This document shows, piece after piece, positions 3,107-30,020 of a stretch of 32,000 nucleotides of DNA. Origin of the DNA: Candidatus Saccharimonadota bacterium (GTDB taxonomy: Bacteria; Bacteroidota; Bacteroidia; Cytophagales; Amoebophilaceae); contig NZ_OZ034918.1 of NCBI RefSeq assembly GCF_964030745.1, positions 1,020,001-1,052,000 on the forward strand. Direction: 5' to 3'. Numbering within the stretch: the first letter of the stretch is position 1; each line of letters begins with the position of its first letter. The notes below the pieces were generated by a model. That model saw only the letters and a list, made by a program, of their open reading frames with translations. It made no database searches and was not told where the DNA came from. The position numbers were made by a program, and so were the translations under genes.

Positions 3107-3739
3107 GTATCTATTCACGCCTGTGGTTGGGGCCCCTTATCTCCTTCGATAAAAAGTCTGGCCCGATAGTAAATAGCTGAATCGATATCTTTCTCAGCGA
3201 GAAAATCGTAAACTCAGCCCGCAAGCGGGCTTCAAACAGACGATTTTCTAATCCGCTGAAAAAGATATCGCTCAGGTGTTCGTGTTTTACTAGAGCGCCA
3301 TTTTTTATCGAAGGAGACGTGGGGCTGATAATGATAAGAAAATCTATTGTCGCCGCCGATAAAGGAATGCGGCGCTTCAGTAAAGCGGAAGTTTTTAAAC
3401 AATCTATTGTTCAGCGGATTAGAAAAACAGTCTGTTTGCAGCCCACAAAGTGGGCAAGTTCTGTTTTTCCCGCTGAACAATAGATTGTTTCATTGCCTTT
3501 ACTGCGCGCCAAATCTTTTATCGGTGGCGAAAAGTACTGCATATACCAATACTCCATGTAAAAAATGCTGTTCTATTTAATAGTCAATAATATATCACTC
3601 TTAAGTTGACGCTATTGTGTGTTCAATGCTATGGCGGTGAGGTCCCCCACTTTTTACCGAGGGCTTGATTTTTGTCCACTTCTTTATCAAGAAAAAAGTG
3701 GAATACAATTCATTACTAACCAGTGACGTGAGTAGATAC
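3107..3739. mobile_element. 633-bp non-coding MITE-like element, copy E1 (modules A-reversed, B, C), 8-bp TSD TAAAAAAT
   Basis: Termini are GTATCTATTCACG (3107) and CGTGAGTAGATAC (ends 3739), 12/13 inverted. Identical 8-bp direct repeats TAAAAAAT lie at 3099-3106 and 3740-3747. The interior is homologous to repeats at 10.0, 14.2, 15.9, 24.1, 27.2 and 30.8 kb. It has no credible ORF. Confidence 0.8.
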
Positions 3740-10010: not shown

Positions 10011-10029
10011 CGTTTTCAACTCACCATTG

Positions 10030-10453
10030 GTATCCATTCATCACTGTGGTTACGTTTTTCTGAAAAAGCAAATAGCTAACCAAGTACCAGCCTCGCGTCT
10101 CCTTCGATAAAAAAATGGCGCTCTAGTAGACCTCTTGCAAAACCTACTTTGTGATGAGCAATTTTTAGGAGAAGTGTAGTCGAGCACCGCAGAATACTTA
10201 ATGTATTTGAGGAGCATAGACAAGCTTCGACACCAAAATTGCCATTAGAAATAGGTTTTGCAAGAGGTCTAGTAAAACACTAACAGGTGAGCGATATATT
10301 TTCAGCGGATTAGAAAATCGTCTGTTTGAAGCCCGCTTGCGGGCTGAGTTTACGATTTTCCCGCTAAAAAACATATCGATTCATCTATTTACTATCGGGC
10401 CAGATTTTTTATCGAGGGAGATAAGGCGGACAGCCAGAGGCGTGAATGGATAC
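10030..10453. mobile_element. 424-bp MITE-like element, copy E2 (module A with nested 141-bp MITE), 8-bp TSD CACCATTG
   Basis: Termini are GTATCCATTCA (10030) and TGAATGGATAC (ends 10453). A perfect 8-bp direct repeat CACCATTG lies at 10022-10029 and 10454-10461. The element starts 20 bp downstream of tRNA-Glu. Confidence 0.85.
10129..10269. mobile_element. 141-bp nested MITE (N) inside E2
   Basis: 17-18 bp perfect TIR GACCTCTTGCAAAACCTA / TAGGTTTTGCAAGAGGTC, flanked by TAGTA at 10124-10128 and 10270-10274. Copy E1 carries the uninterrupted site (3287-3300). Confidence 0.8.
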
Positions 10454-10513
10454 CACCATTGCTGCCCATTTAACTTATTCAAGGCGCTTTCCTAAAAACA
10501 GAAGCGATTCTTT

Positions 10514-11955: not shown

Positions 11956-12753
11956 GTAATGTTTATAGATCATATTCCCATGGATGATGCATTCGACCCA
12001 TTCACCAGTTCTATTCAGCCTAATCCACTATTTGACAGGGCTTCATTTTACTATAAAAGCTGCTCTTCTACCAATGACATGGCTCAAAAACAGCTGCTAC
12101 ATGCAGCAGAAGGAACCCTTTTTATTGCAGAACATCAGTATAAGGGGCGAGGACAACGGGGCAACAGTTGGACATCTGAAGCGGGCAAAAATCTTCTTTT
12201 TTCGTTTATCCTATATCCAGAATGGTTAACAGTAGATGCAGTGTTTGCCTTGAACATTATTACTAGTTTAACCATTTATGATATAGTAGTAGCCTATTTG
12301 CCCAAGGAACTTTCTATAAAATGGCCCAATGATATCTATTATGCAGATCAGAAACTGGGTGGTATATTGATTGAAACCCAAATAGGAGCGTGCCATACCA
12401 TAAAGGCAGCGGTAATCGGTGTTGGTTTAAACGTCAATCAGCTCCATTTTGAATCTTCAACATGCACTTCTTTAGCCATACAAAGGGGAGCTTCCTTGAA
12501 TAGACCACTGCTGCTTGCTCATATCATGGATGCTTTTGGTGGCTATTATGCGCAGTTGCAAAATAGTCTAAACTTGCTTTGGAAAAAGTATACCGATGTA
12601 CTCTACCGCAACAGAGGATTTCACACCTTTGCAACCATACATGGCCCATTAGAAGCGCGTATTGTAACCGTGAATAGGCTAGGGGAGTTGGTGATAGCGA
12701 CCCGCAATGGTAGACAGTATTGCTACAAAGCTAAAGAGATTGCTTTTGTATAG
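11956..12753 (+). CDS. birA: biotin--[acetyl-CoA-carboxylase] ligase (class I, no HTH)
   Basis: GRGQRGNSWTSEAGKNLLFS biotin-binding loop and KWPNDIYYADQKLGGILIE. The ATG at 11956 is preferred over the listed TTG at 11938, but the start is uncertain. Confidence 0.85.
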   Translation, partial: VMFIDHIPMDDAFDPFTSSIQPNPLFDRASFYYKSCSSTNDMAQKQLLHAAEGTLFIAEHQYKGRGQRGNSWTSEAGKNLLFSFILYPEWLTVDAVFALNIITSLTIYDIVVAYLPKELSIKWPNDIYYADQKLGGILIETQIGACHTIKAAVIGVGLNVNQLHFESSTCTSLAIQRGASLNRPLLLAHIMDAFGGYYAQLQNSLNLLWKKYTDVLYRNRGFHTFATIHGPLEARIVTVNRLGELVIATRNGRQYCYKAKEIAFV

Positions 12754-14157: not shown

Positions 14158-14598
14158 TTGTTTAAAAACTTCCGCTTTACTGAAGCGTCGCATTCCTTTA
14201 TCGGCGGCCACAATAGCTTTTCTTATCATTGTCAGCCCCGCGTCTCCTTCGATAAAAAATGGCGCTCTAGTAGACCTCTTGTAAAACCTACTTTGTGATG
14301 AGCAATTTTTAGGAGAAGTGTAGTCGAGCACCGCAGAATACTTAATGTATTTGAGGAGCATAGACAAGCTTCGACACCAAAATTTCCATTAGAAATAGGT
14401 TTTGCAAGAGGTCTAGTAAAACACTAACAGGTGAGCGATATATTTTTAGCGGATTAGAAAATCGTCTGTTTGAAGCCCGCTTGCGGGCTGAGTTTACGAT
14501 TTTCCCGCTAAAAAACATATCGATTCATCTATTTACTATCGGGCCAGACTTTTTATCGAAGGAGATAAGGGGACCCAACCACAGGCGTGAATAGGTAC
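14158..14598. mobile_element. 5'-truncated MITE-like element, copy E4 (one arm of module B, module A with nested N)
   Basis: Homologous to E1/E2. The right terminus CGTGAATAGGTAC ends at 14598. No GTATC left terminus is present, and homology fades about 30 bp after the metK stop codon. The left boundary is approximate. Confidence 0.7.
14273..14413. mobile_element. 141-bp nested MITE (N) inside E4
   Basis: Same TIRs and same TAGTA flanks as the 10129-10269 copy. Confidence 0.8.
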
Positions 14599-14663
14599 CG
14601 TGAAGATTTGAGCACCGGGGTCGATCTGCAAATTACCAGCAGAAGTAGAGTTGCCAGAGCAGT

Positions 14664-15901: not shown

Positions 15902-15902
15902 G

Positions 15903-15985
15903 TTATCTATTCACACCTGTGGCTGGTCCCCATATCTCCTTCGATAAAAAGTCTGGTCCGATAGTAATCAATCAACTGAATGATG
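15903..15985. repeat. solo terminal arm (~80 bp) of the MITE family
   Basis: TTATCTATTCACACCTGTGGCTGGTCCCCATATCTCCTTCGATAAAAAGTCTGGTCCGATAGTAA aligns with the first ~70 nt of E1 (3107-). The rest of the element is absent. Confidence 0.65.
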
Positions 15986-16275
15986 AAGGATATACTGCGT
16001 TGCATTTGGCAGCGCAATATGGTTTTACAACCATAATAAATATGTTACGAAGTGCCAAAGGCATTTTAGTCAATTTGAAAAATAATAATGGTAATACCCC
16101 GCTTCATATGACAGCAGCCTTTAATGCGCTTACAAACGTAGTGGAAGCATTAATGAAATTCCCAGGGATTTTACACAATGAGAAAAATAAAGACGGCGAC
16201 ACACCACGTGATCTAGCAAACGATCAATATCATGAAGAAGTAGTCGAGTGGCTTGATAATTATAATAAAATATAA
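15919..16275 (+). CDS. ankyrin-repeat protein (short, probably a remnant; GTG start inside the MITE arm)
   Basis: ANK repeats DEGYTALHLAAQYG, NGNTPLHMTAAFNA and DGDTPRDLA. The first ~20 codons (MAGPHISFDKKSGPIVINQL) are encoded by MITE-arm sequence. Confidence 0.65.
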   Translation: MAGPHISFDKKSGPIVINQLNDEGYTALHLAAQYGFTTIINMLRSAKGILVNLKNNNGNTPLHMTAAFNALTNVVEALMKFPGILHNEKNKDGDTPRDLANDQYHEEVVEWLDNYNKI

Positions 16276-16313: not shown

Positions 16314-16949
16314 TGTGAAGTTTCAACAGAAACGCTACAACAAGTGATTTATAAAAATATAAAATTATATGTAGTAGTTGATGTGACAAAGGTGGGTAAT
16401 CAGTGCTATCAGTTTACTGCTGTATATGATTGTACAAGACTTAGAGTGTTAAGGCTATATCCTAATAAAACCGCTAAAAATTCAGTTTTATTTTTGCATG
16501 AAATCTTAGGGCATTTTCCTTTCCCGATTCAGCGTGTTCAATCTGACTGGGGAACTGAATTTTTTAATGCTTCCTTTCAAGAAGAGTTAATGGTTCACTT
16601 TATAAAGTTCAGACCCATTAAACCTAGCAGTCCGCACCTAAACGGAAAGGTAGAAAGATCACAACAAACCGATAAAGTAGAGTTTTATAATTTGCTAAAT
16701 CTTAAAGATGCTGCGATTAACTTACCAAAACTTCTTGCAGAATGGGAATATTTTTACAATCATAAACGGCCGCACTCCGCGTTAGGAGGCAAAACTCCTT
16801 GGGAAAAATTTAAAGAACTAGAACCAAAAACATCTATTCAACCAGATGTCACTCAAATGTACTGGGATAGTAATGAGCATATTTTACCAAGGTCTAGCAA
16901 ATACCTAAAATGGAAAAGAAAAATGTCTCACTTCTGTTGAAACTTCACA
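16314..16949. mobile_element. IS481-like element, internal-deletion derivative (636 bp)
   Basis: 18-bp perfect inverted repeats TGTGAAGTTTCAACAGAA (16314-16331) and TTCTGTTGAAACTTCACA (16932-16949) enclose only the catalytic core of an rve-type transposase. No clear TSD. Confidence 0.7.
16344..16940 (+). pseudogene. N-terminally truncated DDE (rve) transposase, IS481-like
   Basis: Integrase core strings VVDVTKVG, SDWGTEFF, HLNGKVERSQQT and YNHKRPHSALGGKTPWEKF. The HTH/N-terminal ~100+ aa are missing and the ORF opens with GTG 12 nt after the left IR. Confidence 0.7.
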
Positions 16950-17047
16950 ACGATATACCGATCTAAAAATTCATACATCTAAATTTTACCCTATATTCGT
17001 CTTGGTATAGTTTGTTTTATAACAAATGATCAATATAATGATATAAA

Positions 17048-23943: not shown

Positions 23944-24378
23944 AGTTATCTTTGCTGTTAAGAGTAGAAAATAACTGATCATTAAAGTAGTAGGTCTTCT
24001 AAAAAATAAAATACTATTAATTTGCATTAAATTTAGTCCTACGTTTTGGATTAGATCTAATTTTTAAGACTGATAGTCAATATGAATAAAAATTCATATA
24101 TGCTACTTTAAATAAAATAGAATATAGGAAAAATAAGTAGATTTGTATCTATTCACGTCACTGGTTAATAATGAATTGTATTCCACTTTATCCTTTATAA
24201 AAAAGTGGGCAAAAAATCAAGCCTTCGGTAAAAAGTTGGGGGCCTCACCCTCTTACAGGGGCATTTTTCTACTATGGCCATAGCGTTTGAACGCATACGC
24301 TACCTTTGGCTGAAAAAGCAAGTGGCTAATCCATTACCAGCCGCAGCGTCTCCTTCGATAAAAAATGGCGCTCTAGTA

Positions 24379-24519
24379 GACCTCTTGCAAAACCTACTTT
24401 GTGATGAGCAATTTTTAGGAGAAGTGTAGTCGAGCACCGCAGAATACTTAATGTATTTGAGGAGCATAGACAAGCTTCGACACCAAAATTTCCATTAGAA
24501 ATAGGTTTTGCAAGAGGTC
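24379..24519. mobile_element. 141-bp nested MITE (N) inside E3
   Basis: Same TIRs and TAGTA flanks as the other N copies. A second, partial copy (right 75 bp) lies at 27200-27274 within the duplicated segment. Confidence 0.8.
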
Positions 24520-24642
24520 TAGTAAAACACTAACAGGTGAGCGATATCTTTTTCAGCGGATTAGAAAATCGTCTGTTTGAAGCCCGCTTGCGGGCTGAGT
24601 TCACGATTTTCCCGCTGAAAAAGATATCGATTCAGCTATTTA
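24445..24642 (+). repeat. left copy of ~198-bp direct duplication flanking the IS5-family element
   Basis: TACTTAATGTATTTGAGG...CAGCTATTTA is repeated at 27200-27396 with only about 3 differences. The two copies share variants absent from E2/E4 (GAGTTCACG, CCGCTGAAAAA). Confidence 0.8.
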
Positions 24643-25124
24643 GTCGGCCCTGAAATATTATATATTTATTTGTTTGTGAATATAAAAACCCGTATATTAT
24701 AATATATATAATAACCATTTTTAGAGTTTTTTTGTATAAAACCTTGCAAAATAGGGATGAAATCTAAGAGGATAAATCATTCTTGTTGTAGGCTTTTTGA
24801 GCAACGCTTATCTGGGATTCTTAATCCCCAACACGCCTTATTTCAGTTAGCTGATTCCATTCCTTGGCAATCCTTAGAATCAGATTTAGATCGCAGCTTT
24901 AGCTATGGACCCGGTCAACCTCCTTTACCTATTCGTTTGATTGTAGGTCTACTCATTATCAGTCATATGTACCAAGTTTCTGATGAGCAAGTAGTTTCTA
25001 GATGGGTAGAAAATCCTTATTGGCAATACCTTTGTGGCTATGATTATTTTCAGATTAAGGCAGCTTGTCACCCTAGTTCATTAACTCGTTGGCGTCAAAG
25101 ATTGGGAGCAGAAGGTCTTAATAA

Positions 25125-26121
25125 CCTGAGTTCTGGATTAGACTTATTGTAAATCAGTCATATATATGTTAGTTATAGAAGGTTTTTTTTTCTTTTAGTC
25201 CATAAGCTGTGATTCCAGCGATCAAATTGACTAAAAAATTAGGTATACTTCTGTGCCTGGAGTGTTCTATCTGGCTAATATTTTTAAGCTGATCTATAAT
25301 TGTTTCAATAATAGATCGCTTTCTAAGCATCAGTTTATCCCAGAGTGGCATAAATGCATTTTTCATATTTTTTCTGATTTGAGTAATCAGTTCCATACCT
25401 TTATCTATCAGTTTCTCAAATAAATCTTTACTCAAGTAGCCTTTATCGCTGAACACTTTACCCATCAAATTTTTACATAAATTTTCTACAGGGAATCTAT
25501 CATTAACTTTACCTGTGGTAAGTGAAAAGTTCATAATTTCTCCTAAATCATTGACTATCAAGTGTAATTTCATCCCAAAAAACCACCCGGTGCTGGTTTT
25601 ACCTTTAGTAGCAATCGATTTAAAAACCTTATGAGCATAGGATCTTTTGACATTACAAACTTTGATGGCTGTTGCATCCATAAAGTAGCAACCTGTTTTT
25701 GTTTTAGAGAGACTTTGTGTAAAAAAGTACATTGGTACTAAGGATCTCTGAATCAGTGCTATAAATCTAGTATAGCTTACTAGATTACTAAAGTCATTAG
25801 AATGAAACTGCTGTAGATGAGCATAATATGACTTAAAGTTTCTAAAGCCAATTACATGAAAGGCAATTAATATGGTCATTATTTCGCTCAAAGACAACGA
25901 ACAAGTTCTAGTAGGTTTTCTTGTAGAGTGGGGTAACAGTTGACTTTCCATATAAGGCATAAATTTTTTAAGAATTCATCGACAGCGAAATATATTTCGA
26001 CTAATTTTGTTACATTCATAATGGGCTCCTTTGTTAATTTGGTTATTGTTTTCAACTCCAAATTTAAAACACAAAGGGGCTCTTTTAAACGCATTCTTAA
26101 ATTTCTAATCCAGAACTCAGG
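25125..26121 (-). mobile_element. IS982-family insertion sequence (997 bp), 7-bp TSD TTAATAA
   Basis: 18-bp perfect IRs CCTGAGTTCTGGATTAGA (25125-25142) and TCTAATCCAGAACTCAGG (26104-26121). Direct repeats TTAATAA lie at 25118-25124 and 26122-26128. Confidence 0.85.
25169..26019 (-). CDS. IS982-family transposase in two frames (-1 shift needed at an A6 run)
   Basis: The N-terminal 20 codons start at the ATG at 26019 (MNVTKLVEIYFAVDEFLKN). The body is the 263-aa ORF 25169-25960 (SLSEIMTILIAFHVIGFRNFKSYY, DATAIKVC, GWFFGMKLHLIVNDLGEI, DKGY). The frames overlap at TTAAAAAAT (T-run 25964-25969 on the plus strand). Confidence 0.7.
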
Positions 26122-27199
26122 TTAATAAGATCTTATCGATGACTATACAATTAGCCATTAAAAAAAAAGTAGTCTGCCCAAAAGAACTTGAAAAAGTGAT
26201 ATCCGACACTACTGTAATGGAGAAAAATATTCGCTATCCAACTGATTCTTCGTTGCTTAATAAGGCTAGACAAAAACTAGTGGCTATAGCTAAGAAAACA
26301 GGCGTTAAACTCCGTCAAACCTACCAACGTCTAGGCCCAGCTATCAAACGTAAAGTAGATGGCTATGCACATGCTAAACAGTTTAAACGTTTAGCCAAAG
26401 GCGTTAAAACATTAAAAAACTATCTTGGTCGGGTGGTAAGAGATGTAGAACGCTCTATGCAATCGTGTGATGAAGCAATACGCACCCAGTTTAGACATCT
26501 GCTTTCTATAAGTAAAAGGATTATTAACCAATCAAAAAAAAGTAAAAATAAAGTCTATAGTATCCATGAACCTGCTGTTTACTGCGTAAGTAAAGGTAAG
26601 GCTTTAAATCCCTATGAGTATGGTTGTAAGGTGCAATTTACGCTCACCCATAAACAAGGCTTGATTGTATCAACGGAAGCTTTAGATCCTAATGAATATG
26701 ATGGACATACCTTGCATAGAAGTTTATTACAAGCAGAAAAACTATCTGGTACTCAGGTAAAACACCTCTTCGTAGACAGGGGTTACAGAGGTCATAATAT
26801 ACCTAATAGTCAATGTAATATATTTATAAGCGGCTCTAAAAGAGGTATAACGCCTAGTCTCAAAAAAGCACTAAAAAGAAGATCTGCTATTGAACCACAT
26901 ATTGGTCATATGAAATCTGATGGTAAGTTAGCGGTTAACTACTTGAAAGGAATATTGGGAGACAAACTCAATGCTATTCTATGTGCTATTAGCCATAATC
27001 TACGCCTTATTACAAGAAAAACATTCCTAATACCCACCTAATCAGGTAAAATAAAACCTATAGCACTAAGATGCTTTATCCTGAACTAACGTATACAGAT
27101 ACCAGGATTAGAATAGATACAGAACATGAAAAAATTGAAATGGGGCAGGTGATTATTTTTTTAATAAATAACTTGAAGTATGAATACTTCAGGGCCGAC

Positions 27200-27396
27200 T
27201 ACTTAATGTATTTGAGGAGCATAGACAAGCTTCGACACCAAAATTTCCATTAGAAATAGGTTTTGCAAGAGGTCTAGTAAAACACTAACAGGTGAGCGAT
27301 ATATTTTCAGCGGATTAGAAAATCGTCTGTTTGAAGCCCGCTTGCGGGCTGAGTTCACGATTTTCCCGCTGAAAAATATATCGATTCAGCTATTTA
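27200..27396 (+). repeat. right copy of ~198-bp direct duplication flanking the IS5-family element
   Basis: See 24445-24642. It continues seamlessly into the right arm and terminus of E3 (27397-27458). Confidence 0.8.
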
Positions 27397-27583: not shown

Positions 27584-28269
27584 CTATTTAGAAAACTGAT
27601 CTAATAGATCATCTAGATATTGACCATCGTTCGCATTAAACTGATATAAAAGAGGCCCTTCCTTTCCATGATATATTTTTTCCCAATCCTTATGTGAAGC
27701 ATCATTACGAAGTATATCATCACCAGAATGGTGTATTTTAAATGCTAAAATACCTCTCCGAACTGAATCATTATAAGTACCATCTGTTTTGATATTATAT
27801 CCATATTCGCGTAGCTTTTGGATCCATTCTTGTTCATCTTGTGATAACCTACTATCTTTTTCCTTATAAGACACTACTATGTCAGGGTTTGGACTTATAC
27901 TTAAGTCCTTTTTTCTGGGGTATATACCAAAATTTTTATTAATGTTCAGTTCATTAAAAGATGGTTCGTCCTGTGCATTAGCCAATTTGTCCCAAAAGAA
28001 ATAAGGATTTGGATCAATTTTTCTACTTGGATCCCAATCGCTATGTCCTAGCATTAGTTTAGCATCAATGCTCCTATGCTGTTGAGTAAGCATTGCAGAC
28101 AGTTCTACATTAGACTTGATTTGTGCCTCTGTATAAGGTTGATTACCATTATTTACATTTTCAATTCCAATAGACCAACTATTCATATCATTTTGTAGTT
28201 CGGAATAAGATACTAAAGAACTACTAAGTTTAGAGCTTGCAGCTAAACTACCAATGCCTGCGTGATAAG
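27584..28269 (-). pseudogene. N-acetylmuramoyl-L-alanine amidase (amidase_2) gene, C-terminal part with peptidoglycan-binding domain
   Basis: The reading frame is open upstream of the listed Met back to the IS junction (..YHAGIGSLAASS..MNSWSIGIENVNNG..LMLGHSDWDPSRKIDPNPYF). The C-terminus is PG_binding_1-like (IQKLREYGYNIKTDGTYNDSVRRGILAFKIHH). Confidence 0.8.
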
Positions 28270-29612
28270 GGCTCTGTCCAGTTAAGTGTGTAACTATATT
28301 TTAGGGTTGTTAGATTCTATTTTCAAATTTAATTAAAAAATGAGCCATAGCCTCACTCCAATTATGGATAGGCGTGGTCCATTTTCTGGTCATATAGTTA
28401 ATAGTTAAATATAATGTTTTAAACACAGCTATATCGTTAGGGAACACTCTTTTATTTTTGGTAACTCTACGAAATTGGCTATTTACAGATTCCACGGCAT
28501 TGGTTGTGTAAATGACTCTACGTATGGCGTTAGGATATTGTAAAAATATCATCAGATTATCCCAGTTAGCATACCAAGACTTGGCTATTTGTGGGTATTG
28601 TTTATCCCATTTAGTAGCAAAAGTTTCTAATGCCATCAGGGCTTCTTCTTGAGTAACTGCTGTATAAATTGGCTTTAAATCAGCAACTAATTCCTTTCTA
28701 TGTTTATAGGACACATACTGCAGACTATTCCTAATTTGGTGAATAATACAGAGTTGGTGATCTGTTTTAGGGTATACAGCAGCGATTGCCTCAGACATAC
28801 CTGGCAAGTTATCTGTACATGCAATGAGCATATCGTTCATACCCCGATTTTTGAGTTCTGTTAAATTACCTAACCAAAATTTAGCTCCTTCATTTTCACT
28901 CATCCACAGCCCTAAAACATCCTTTATGCCAGATCTATCTATACCTAAAGCAACATAGACTGCCTTGTTGATGATACGTTTATCTTGTCTAACTTTAACT
29001 ACAAAACAATCAAAAAAAACAATAGGATAGACTGATTCTAATGGGCGATTTTGCCATATCTTAACATCTTCAATAACAGAATCTGTGATGTTACTTATCA
29101 GGCTTTCACTAACTTCTGCACCATATAATTCCTGTATTTGAACCTGAATATCTGATAGGCTCATACCTTTAGCGTATAAAGATAAGATCTTATCATCTAA
29201 ACCAGGAATTCTTGTTTGGCGTTTAGGTAATAAAACAGGTTCAAAAGTAGAGGATCTATCTCTTGGAACTTCAACCGATATAACCCCATGATCAGTGATA
29301 ACTTGCTTGCTGGATAAGCCATTACGAGCATTTTCTGAATCACTACGAGCATGCTTGTTATAGCCTAAATGGCTATCCATTTCTGACTCTAAGGCTTTTT
29401 CTACAAGACGCTTACTTAATTGTTTGAGTAAACCGCCTTGGTCAAATAGGGTCGATAAGTCTACGCCTGAGTCTATCAGTACGTCTATAGCCTTGCTTAT
29501 GCCGTCTTTGGGTGTCTCTTTTCTTTTCATTTTTTTAGGGTTAAGGGTGACTCTCTAGAAAGAGAGAAATAGACAACCTAAAAATTACTTACACACTTTA
29601 AAAGACAGACTC
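28270..29612 (-). mobile_element. IS256-family insertion sequence (1343 bp), 8-bp TSD GTGATAAG
   Basis: About 30-bp imperfect IRs (GGCTCTGTCCAGTTAAGTGTGTAAC... at 28270; ...TTACACACTTTAAAAGACAGACTC ending 29612). Perfect 8-bp direct repeats lie at 28262-28269 and 29613-29620. Confidence 0.85.
28310..29530 (-). CDS. IS256-family (Mutator-type) transposase, apparently intact
   Basis: 406 aa. LEKALESEMDSHLGY, VFFDCFVVKVR, CTDNLPGMSEAIAAVYPKTDHQLCIIHQIRNSL and TTNAVESVNSQFRRVTK are typical of IS256 transposases. Confidence 0.9.
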   Translation of the reverse strand: MKRKETPKDGISKAIDVLIDSGVDLSTLFDQGGLLKQLSKRLVEKALESEMDSHLGYNKHARSDSENARNGLSSKQVITDHGVISVEVPRDRSSTFEPVLLPKRQTRIPGLDDKILSLYAKGMSLSDIQVQIQELYGAEVSESLISNITDSVIEDVKIWQNRPLESVYPIVFFDCFVVKVRQDKRIINKAVYVALGIDRSGIKDVLGLWMSENEGAKFWLGNLTELKNRGMNDMLIACTDNLPGMSEAIAAVYPKTDHQLCIIHQIRNSLQYVSYKHRKELVADLKPIYTAVTQEEALMALETFATKWDKQYPQIAKSWYANWDNLMIFLQYPNAIRRVIYTTNAVESVNSQFRRVTKNKRVFPNDIAVFKTLYLTINYMTRKWTTPIHNWSEAMAHFLIKFENRI

Positions 29613-30020
29613 GTGATAAGCTCTGTAAAGATCCGAAACAAAACGATACACACTCCCATTAGTGTCAATAACATAATGAGCAGATACCGTAGATTTTTCT
29701 TGTGTAAATATATCAACAGTACGCTCGAATTTTGCAACTGTATGATGTTGCACGAGATATATAGGATATGCTTCCCCATATAGTCTATCTTTCTCATCGG
29801 GACCAATTTTTTTGAATCTATAGTTAAAAGTGTTACACTTTCCTGTTTCTCGGTTGGTTGTCTCCCCACTTTCTCCATGTTTTAAGGGATATCTATCCAT
29901 ATCACGTAGGTAATCATTCTTTACTACATCTGCTAACATAGGTTGATACGATACGTGTCCACTGCAAGCTATTCCCATTATATAACTACATAGTAGAACT
30001 TTAAATTTATTCCTGTTCAT
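29613..30020 (-). pseudogene. N-acetylmuramoyl-L-alanine amidase gene, N-terminal part (lipoprotein signal + first half of amidase_2 domain)
   Basis: Lipobox MGIACS, then LVQHHTVAKFERTVDIF...VSAHYVIDTNGSVYRFVSDLYRAYH. The frame then runs into the IS256 end. Joining at the TSD restores ..RAYHAGIGS... Confidence 0.8.

Follow-up and report, generated by a model that had tools for sequence, protein, structure and literature searches.

A palindromic MITE with a covarying three-tier hairpin in a Cardinium endosymbiont genome

The 32,000-nt stretch of DNA analysed here (the window) comes from a Cardinium endosymbiont, apparently that of Philonthus spinipes. A three-tier hairpin of ~88 nt is present in it six times, as five type A copies and a single type B copy. 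The hairpin forms the middle of a palindromic MITE with a terminal inverted repeat (TIR) at each end and is neither a free-standing gene nor a separate insertion, because its flanks are homologous and mutually inverted and a complete copy ends in TIRs. The best explanation is that this MITE has multiplied within one Cardinium sub-clade. An earlier note on this DNA had claimed that the pairing of the stems is conserved rather than their sequence, and a larger alignment with covariation statistics bears this out. We lean towards maintenance of the fold at the DNA level, as a selfish fold-back, over the alternatives weighed below.

Hairpin copies in the window

The window is AT-rich (37% G+C) and its GyrB shares 94% identity with the GyrB of both the Oedothorax gibbosus Cardinium and the Nabis limbatus Cardinium. 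The six hairpins were scored with a covariance model and are listed in Table 1 with the other features of the element. The two described in the earlier note, the type A copy at 3180-3272 and the type B copy, lie where the note had placed them, with model scores of 111 and 89 bits. The anchor AGCGGATTAGAAAA occurs six times in the window against an expectation of 0.36.

All copies share one skeleton. A 12-bp distal stem is joined to CAGCGG/CCGCTG, with a 4-nt ATTA bulge, and the inner part consists of a 9-bp middle stem, an 8x6 asymmetric internal loop, and a GC-rich apical stem. When six intact copies were folded together with shuffles, z-scores ranged from -4.4 to -12.3. Five of these copies fold at -43 to -49 kcal/mol with z-scores of -7.7 to -12.3, and the weakest fold is that of the copy at 10290, at -33 kcal/mol.

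Table 1. Coordinates of the hairpins and of the MITE features. Positions refer to the window unless a locus is named.
Feature	Position	Strand	Evidence
Type A hairpin	3180-3272	-	Covariance model 111.3 bits; fold -46.9 kcal/mol, z -7.7
Long imperfect palindrome (MITE arms) with hairpin B central	3350-3541	+	RNAfold of 3330-3560, -98.4 kcal/mol, one long hairpin
Type B hairpin, the sole B in the window	3398-3490	+	88.9 bits; fold -48.2 kcal/mol, z -12.3
Complete composite MITE with type A hairpin	10029-10454	+	TIRs 10029-10051 and 10431-10454; repeat families
Second, nested MITE, 141 bp (GACCTCTTGCAAAACC...GGTTTTGCAAGAGGTC)	10129-10269	+	In left arm of first MITE
Type A hairpin	10290-10381	+	103.6 bits; z -4.4
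Type A hairpin	14434-14525	+	106.2 bits
Type A hairpin, reference A0	24540-24632	+	116.8 bits; fold -48.5 kcal/mol, z -9.4
Type A hairpin	27295-27386	+	110 bits
Type C hairpin	L002 865-955	-	Exact left-arm pattern search, Nabis limbatus Cardinium
Type D hairpin	L004 13026-13119	-	gyrB neighbourhood of Nabis limbatus Cardinium

Variants and relics in other Cardinium

Two further variants of the hairpin are present in the Cardinium of Nabis limbatus. Type C is the one match of the exact left-arm pattern among species-representative genomes. Type D lies downstream of gyrB and two small ORFs, as type B does in the window, and the flanks of the two are homologous. In this genome a second, degenerate hairpin unit, which has a right flank of its own, stands in tandem beside type D (L004 12860-12930, minus strand).

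The Oedothorax symbiont carries two relics, at L003 12730-12816 and L009 13623-13709, both weak matches to the covariance model. These keep GAAAAnCAG...TTTAATGG...CTGnTTTTC and have lost stem pairs, with z-scores of -0.7 and -2.8. At the second Oedothorax locus, reached via an IS256 transposase, such a weak relic was all that the model gave.

The covariance model, built on eight copies (five A, B, C, and D), gave no other convincing match in the window and L002-L004 (~84 kb together), and no copy in L005-L008, ~85 kb from three Bemisia tabaci strains and another Logan Cardinium. In L005, which is from a different Cardinium, no copy occupies the site downstream of gyrB. A first metagenome scan gave no matches and a looser one gave 30 chance matches, none of which passed the covariance model (0/30). 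BLAST against plasmids found no match, and a protein search with an ORF overlying the hairpin found one 51-aa product, apparently from the window's own genome. The TIR motif TATCYATTCAYRYC occurs 9 times in the window, where 0.17 occurrences are expected, and is not found in the loci of other strains.

Downstream of tRNA-Glu, strains without the MITE carry terminal-repeat-like sequences (GGTAATCTATTCAT, GTATCCATTCAAC, TATCTGTTCATC), located at L004 6215-6250 and L005 6080-6105 on the minus strands. These could be old insertion footprints or a motif that predates insertion.

Covariation of the stems

Types A and B already differ by many matched changes. Three pairs of the middle stem are changed on both sides (GAAAATCGT/ACGATTTTC in A vs. 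GAAAAACAG/CTGTTTTTC in B) and the apical stem has one compensated pair (GCCCGC/GCGGGC in A vs. GCCCAC/GTGGGC in B), as the earlier note had reported. The distal stems, which it had taken as flanks, align position by position between A and B and hold four further compensated pairs within their 12 bp (CGATATCTTTTT/AAAAAGATATCG in A vs. CAATCTATTGTT/AACAATAGATTG in B). In total, A and B are separated by 8 compensated pairs and 1 other change, more compensation than had first been counted.

Among the A copies, the four outer-stem states previously quoted as covarying all exist, and unmatched C·A, A·C, and G·T states that had been omitted exist beside them. The reference copy A0 has all stem pairs intact. 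It shares the GATATC/GATATC state with the copy at 3180-3272 and CAGCGG/CCGCTG with the copy at 27295-27386, which carries the compensated GATATA/TATATC together with one bulged A. In the copy at 10290-10381 a C·A (CAGCGG/CCGCTA) and an A·C (GATATA/CATATC) are unmatched. The copy at 14434-14525 has its outer pair restored by TAGCGG/CCGCTA and still contains the A·C mismatch GATATA/CATATC; its 300-nt repeat unit is 99% identical to the unit at 10110-10409 by repeat-family comparison. The module A core that had been quoted contains the stems as described, and the local copy at 3180-3272 departs from this consensus because of two G·T pairs, CAGCGG/TCGCTG and TTTTT/AGAAA.

Standard pairs make up 93% of cells in the model-based alignment and nine pairs have changes on both sides, values that 0/500 shuffles reach. 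When the partners are slid by 1-3 columns, ~40-49% of cells pair and at most three double-change pairs remain. Both the MAFFT- and the model-based alignment place the apical right arm one column off because the apical loop of A, at 2 nt, is shorter than the 3-nt loop of B, C, and D. The 34 pairs, apical stem included, were therefore tabulated by hand.

Permutation tests used one representative per lineage (A0, B, C, and D), which avoids repeat counting of the near-identical A copies. Across the four representatives, 127 of the 136 cells are Watson-Crick pairs, and each of the ten variable left-arm columns pairs with a variable right-arm column (10/10). Ten columns show two or three different Watson-Crick pairs, with three types each at distal positions 4 and 10. 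The 10 covarying pairs observed compare with 1.08±0.95 when partner columns are random (0/20,000 permutations), and with 4.5±1.4 covarying columns when bases are shuffled within columns (0/20,000 reach the observed value). The B and D hairpins, which share one genomic position, are separated by 5 compensated pairs plus 2 single changes, where chance would give about one coincidence.

A count of events over all eight copies gives at least 14 matched double changes vs. ~11 single-sided changes. The earlier note had held that as many uncompensated as compensated changes would speak against conserved pairing. The raw count approaches such a balance; the excess of matched changes over chance is nevertheless very large because only ~1 double change is expected. 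In the young A lineage the unmatched changes outnumber the matched ones, at ~4 vs. 2. Between variants the arms differ by 15-35%, yet the stems are nearly perfect. Hypervariability of the stems was considered and rejected, as 29-41% of arm columns vary vs. ~30% of the right flank by hand count.

Anatomy of the MITE

The sequences beside the hairpin are shared between its variants. The left flank is homologous in A, B, and D (...CGATAAA..GGCGCT.TAGTAAAA...), the right flank is homologous in A, B, C, and D (...GTTTCA..TTTACT...GCCA....TTTATCG...), and the two flanks are inverted copies of one another. Around hairpin B they form a long imperfect palindrome whose outer arms pair more loosely and include G·T pairs. 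The homologous arms around type D fold at -101.7 kcal/mol, and the B and D elements each fold as a single hairpin of ~190 nt. A separate, nested insertion of the hairpin was considered and rejected, since no direct repeat borders the hairpin and A, B, and D have homologous sequence on both sides of it.

The complete copy of the MITE is 426 bp long, contains short ORFs only, and ends in terminal inverted repeats of ~23 nt (GGTATCCATTCA...). A 6-nt direct repeat, ACCATT, flanks it at 10023-10028 and 10455-10460. The same ACCATT precedes a solo end at 15902 and may be a preferred target rather than a duplication only. Other copies of the MITE are truncated or mosaic. The six hairpin-bearing copies lie at unrelated loci in 32 kb, and the element combines short non-coding size, terminal repeats, dispersed copies, and presence or absence between strains, as is characteristic of MITEs. 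No autonomous element with its terminal repeats was found in the window, where the ends of the IS5-, IS982-, IS256-, and IS481-like elements differ from them.

Several details of individual copies may be added. The segments 10110-10454 and 14254-14600 are 99% identical over the central 300 nt and have about ten differing sites in the last 60 nt, TIR included. These divergent ends suggest gene conversion or recombination between copies. The solo MITE end (GTTATCTATTCACACC...GATAGTAA; 15902-16275) starts 1 nt past the stop codon of a NUDIX gene, and an ankyrin-repeat ORF (15919-16275) starts within it. A small hairpin in the MITE arm, CGCTTCAGTAAAGCG then GAAGTTTTTA, is present at 3373-3387 (+) and 14173-14187 (-). 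It was flagged as terminator-like and, besides the apical stem of B, is the only such part of these repeats.

Nested MITE and neighbouring insertion sequences

The left arm of the complete copy contains a second MITE, bounded by a 5-bp duplication, TAGTA, at 10124-10128 and 10270-10274. The insertion recurs at 14273-14413 and 24379-24519, and most A copies carry it. Its unoccupied site, GCGCTCTAGTAAAAC, is kept at 3283-3297 (-). A solo copy of the nested MITE with the duplication TATTA is present in the Nabis genome (L004 ~12009-12152). The two ends of this MITE share a variant: each arm reads GCAAAA in the window and GCATAA in Nabis. Its GTGATGAGC segment has a hammerhead-like look; this candidate was dropped as there is no Rfam match.

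An IS5-like element with the ends TAGTCGGCCCTGAA/TTCAGGGCCGACTA occupies 24641-27201. An IS982-like insertion with ends at 25112-25142 and 26104-26134 and an ORF at 25169-25960 splits the transposase gene of this element into 24757-25152 and 26139-27041. The IS5-like element is flanked by two partial copies of the hairpin MITE which are in direct orientation and not contiguous. This arrangement suggests recombination between copies. An N-acetylmuramoyl-L-alanine amidase gene (27584-30020) is likewise split, into 29598-30020 and 27584-28186, by an IS256-family element with ends at 28273-28305 and 29577-29609 and a transposase at 28310-29530. An IS481-like remnant at 16314-16950 has perfect ends (TGTGAAGTTTCAACAGAA) and a truncated integrase-core ORF (16344-16940).

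Maintenance of the fold at the DNA or RNA level

The explanation we prefer, with some reserve, is maintenance of a selfish fold-back at the DNA level. The hairpin would be the central fold-back of an undescribed palindromic MITE with TIRs, and the element would fold on itself as a single strand during replication or transposition, keeping its arms complementary. A change in one arm may then be lost, as copies with a broken fold would give no new copies, or it may be matched, with the opposite arm either mutating in compensation or being recopied from the changed arm by template switching. This explanation requires no host function. Single-stranded DNA is probably the relevant molecule, and either propagation or correction may act as the filter on the arms. 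The data do not separate fold-dependent propagation from correction of the arms by template switching. Template switching in imperfect palindromes is a documented source of such changes (PMC7202029, PMC8794818).

Several observations favour maintenance at the DNA level over the RNA level. Both strands fold equally well, with z-scores of -9.4 vs. -9.5 for one pair of strands and -12.3 vs. -10.7 for another. The two arms of a copy also share variants outside the hairpin. In the copy at 10029-10454 both terminal repeats read ATCCATTC, where other copies read ATCTATTC; the MITE ends at 24146 and 27444 both have CACGTC; and the agtaaaG/agtaaaA difference between B and D is present in both arms. This sharing reaches arms that are 150-400 nt apart, terminal repeats included, with more mismatches there. 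Individual loci do not appear to be under purifying selection because unmatched changes exceed matched ones in the young A lineage and the relics have decayed.

Other features fit the DNA-level explanation less well. An asymmetric bulge (ATTA or ATCA) and an internal loop with an invariant TGTTTG are kept in all four variants. Their retention counts against frequent long-tract copying between the arms because such copying should erase them. The bulge and loop may be kept because a protein or RNA recognises them or because perfect palindromes are selected against. Of the 11 covarying pairs, 7 involve transversions, a pattern not accounted for by simple wobble-mediated compensation or by any specific model of correction. 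We also know of no DDE transposase for which a need for an internal hairpin has been demonstrated.

The earlier note had offered three possible causes for the conserved pairing: a hairpin-recognising transposition mechanism, arm-to-arm conversion, and an RNA function. Hairpin-dependent propagation and arm-to-arm conversion both stand. The third is weakened: the single-sided changes show no clear strand bias, the scanned A copies lack a terminator shape, and the hairpin has no match in Rfam. Under this third alternative the hairpin would act as RNA, as a bidirectional terminator, a stabiliser or processing site of transcripts, or a small RNA, and selection on RNA pairing would drive compensation. 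Structured RNAs are classically recognised by covariation that goes with conserved motifs at unpaired positions, here the ATTA bulge and the TGTTTG of the 5' internal loop. The positions of the copies also suit such a role, with five of the six window copies lying between convergent genes. The sixth (24540-24632) lies past the 3' end of one gene and ahead of the 5' end of a transposase gene. The B, C, and D hairpins are each followed by a T-rich tract, and the apical stem of B was flagged as terminator-like. The bcr1 repeats of Bacillus provide a precedent, being transcribed and having a structure kept by compensatory changes (PMC3184786).

An RNA function is nonetheless improbable in our assessment. 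Six G·T pairs are tolerated on the element strand, as expected of RNA, but four A·C events fall on the same strand and there is no clear strand bias. All clear single-sided changes are transitions, and the comparison of 6 G·T with 4 A·C events has little power because only 8 intact copies in 4 lineages are available. None of the scanned A copies was flagged as a terminator, canonical or otherwise, and among the hairpins only the apical stem of B was. At the gathering score the only Rfam 15 match is tRNA-Glu, which leaves the hairpin outside the RNA families curated there, and even at E<=10 there are only generic hairpin matches to microRNA precursors, far below threshold. B in the window and D in L004 are oppositely oriented relative to the gyrB-side genes. 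Recent copies gain unmatched changes and relics decay, and selection on single pairs should in any case be weak in an endosymbiont with a small population. A functional RNA receives no positive support from this evidence.

We give similarly little weight to the pairing being a mutational by-product, in which template switching or mismatch correction in the fold-back matches the arms with no selection on the fold. The near-perfect stems at such arm divergence would be expected, as would the compensating C-to-T change found between copies with 99% identical 300-nt units. Adjoining the hairpin of copy 3180-3272, at 3263-3275, CACCTG replaces the CAGGTG of all other copies (10277-10289 etc.), a two-base flip to the reverse complement and the kind of change that template switching produces. 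Such a mechanism is known from E. coli and from the evolution of RNA hairpins (PMC7202029, PMC8794818). However, no variant has lost the bulge or the asymmetric internal loop, the outer arms of this palindrome have not stayed perfect, and the Oedothorax relics have lost pairing instead of being corrected.

It is also conceivable, if rather doubtful, that selection acts on the shape of the hairpin as a mobile structured module, with the ATTA bulge and the TGTTTG loop read by a protein. It would then either provide the structure recognised in a putative hairpin-dependent step of transposition or be an element of transcript processing or termination that the MITE has carried through a reduced endosymbiont genome.

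Recognition by a REP/RAYT- or IS200/IS605-type transposase, which would read the hairpin as a single strand, is very improbable. Such systems do conserve structure while sequence varies, bulged hairpins are typical recognition sites, and compensatory changes occur in the IS200/IS605 stem-loops of Borrelia (PMC3184786). This element, however, has TIRs and a flanking direct repeat, which those families lack. Its 88-nt hairpin far exceeds a REP in length, and neither of the REP tags, GTAG or CGTC, is conserved in it (definition in PMC3733652). The transposases found in the window with Pfam are of the IS5, IS982, IS256, and IS3/IS481 types, and no Y1 transposase is present among the 20 window ORFs scanned, which include every repeat-adjacent ORF.

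Comparison with known systems

The closest known system to the window MITE is bcr1, an MITE-like repeat of ~155 bp in the Bacillus cereus group. Both are dispersed intergenic repeats with short flanking direct repeats, both are unevenly conserved between strains, and in both the fold is kept by compensatory changes and lost in some copies (PMC3184786). They are unrelated in sequence. bcr1 is cruciform-like, with two stem-loops, and is transcribed, whereas the window MITE is, as predicted from its sequence, a single three-tier hairpin within a longer palindrome bounded by TIRs. Stem-loops derived from IS200/IS605 in Borrelia behave similarly (PMC3184786).

Within Cardinium, the ~240-bp MITECca01 and MITECca02 derive from the IS982-family ISCca4 and are reported only in the Oedothorax Cardinium strain (PMC9769881). 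These and the window MITE have each expanded in a single Cardinium lineage and are mostly intergenic. The terminal repeats of the window MITE (GGTATCYATTCAC...) differ from those of MITECca01/02, a family that is known here by its description (PMC9769881). Identity with MITECca01 was rejected, as BLAST to the Oedothorax locus L003 gave one 20-nt match only, and the ends of the IS982-like element of the window also differ from those of the hairpin MITE. No Cardinium MITEs other than MITECca01/02 were found in the literature searchable. The present element therefore adds an undescribed MITE family to Cardinium, for which only the IS982-derived MITEs of one strain had been reported.

REPs, palindromes of 20-40 bp tagged with GTAG or CGTC, accompany a Y1 transposase (PMC3733652). 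REP/REPIN sequences and the window hairpin are both extragenic palindromes in which stem pairing is conserved while sequence drifts. The window hairpin differs in its length and in having no end tetranucleotide conserved across A-D, and it has no Y1 gene among the scanned ORFs. On size, tag, TIRs, direct repeat, and transposase, assignment to the REP/RAYT or IS200/IS605 elements was rejected. An intrinsic terminator, or a mobile repeat resembling one such as the pneumococcal SPRITE, was likewise set aside, as the scanned A copies do not show a GC-rich stem with a T/U run.

The Correia/NEMIS elements of Neisseria, the ERIC elements of enterobacteria, and the Rickettsia palindromic elements are imperfect palindromes of ~100-150 bp that form long hairpins and have spread through intergenic regions; PMC3184786 gives an overview of such repeats. 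The Rickettsia elements are, in addition, hosted by an obligate intracellular bacterium. None of these has sequence similarity to the window MITE, and their terminal repeats and duplication lengths are different. RNA-processing or protein-coding roles have been described for those families.

The element provides a clean, small case of about ten covarying pairs in a selfish repeat. Covariation alone is not evidence of a functional RNA because palindromic mobile DNA yields the same signal, a caution that may be useful to RNA-discovery scans of repeat-rich endosymbiont genomes. If the fold is needed for mobility or transcript processing, the element would be a workable model in which the variants are natural compensatory mutants. 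Pairing between matched arms is the expected behaviour of palindromic bacterial repeats; the family itself is new.
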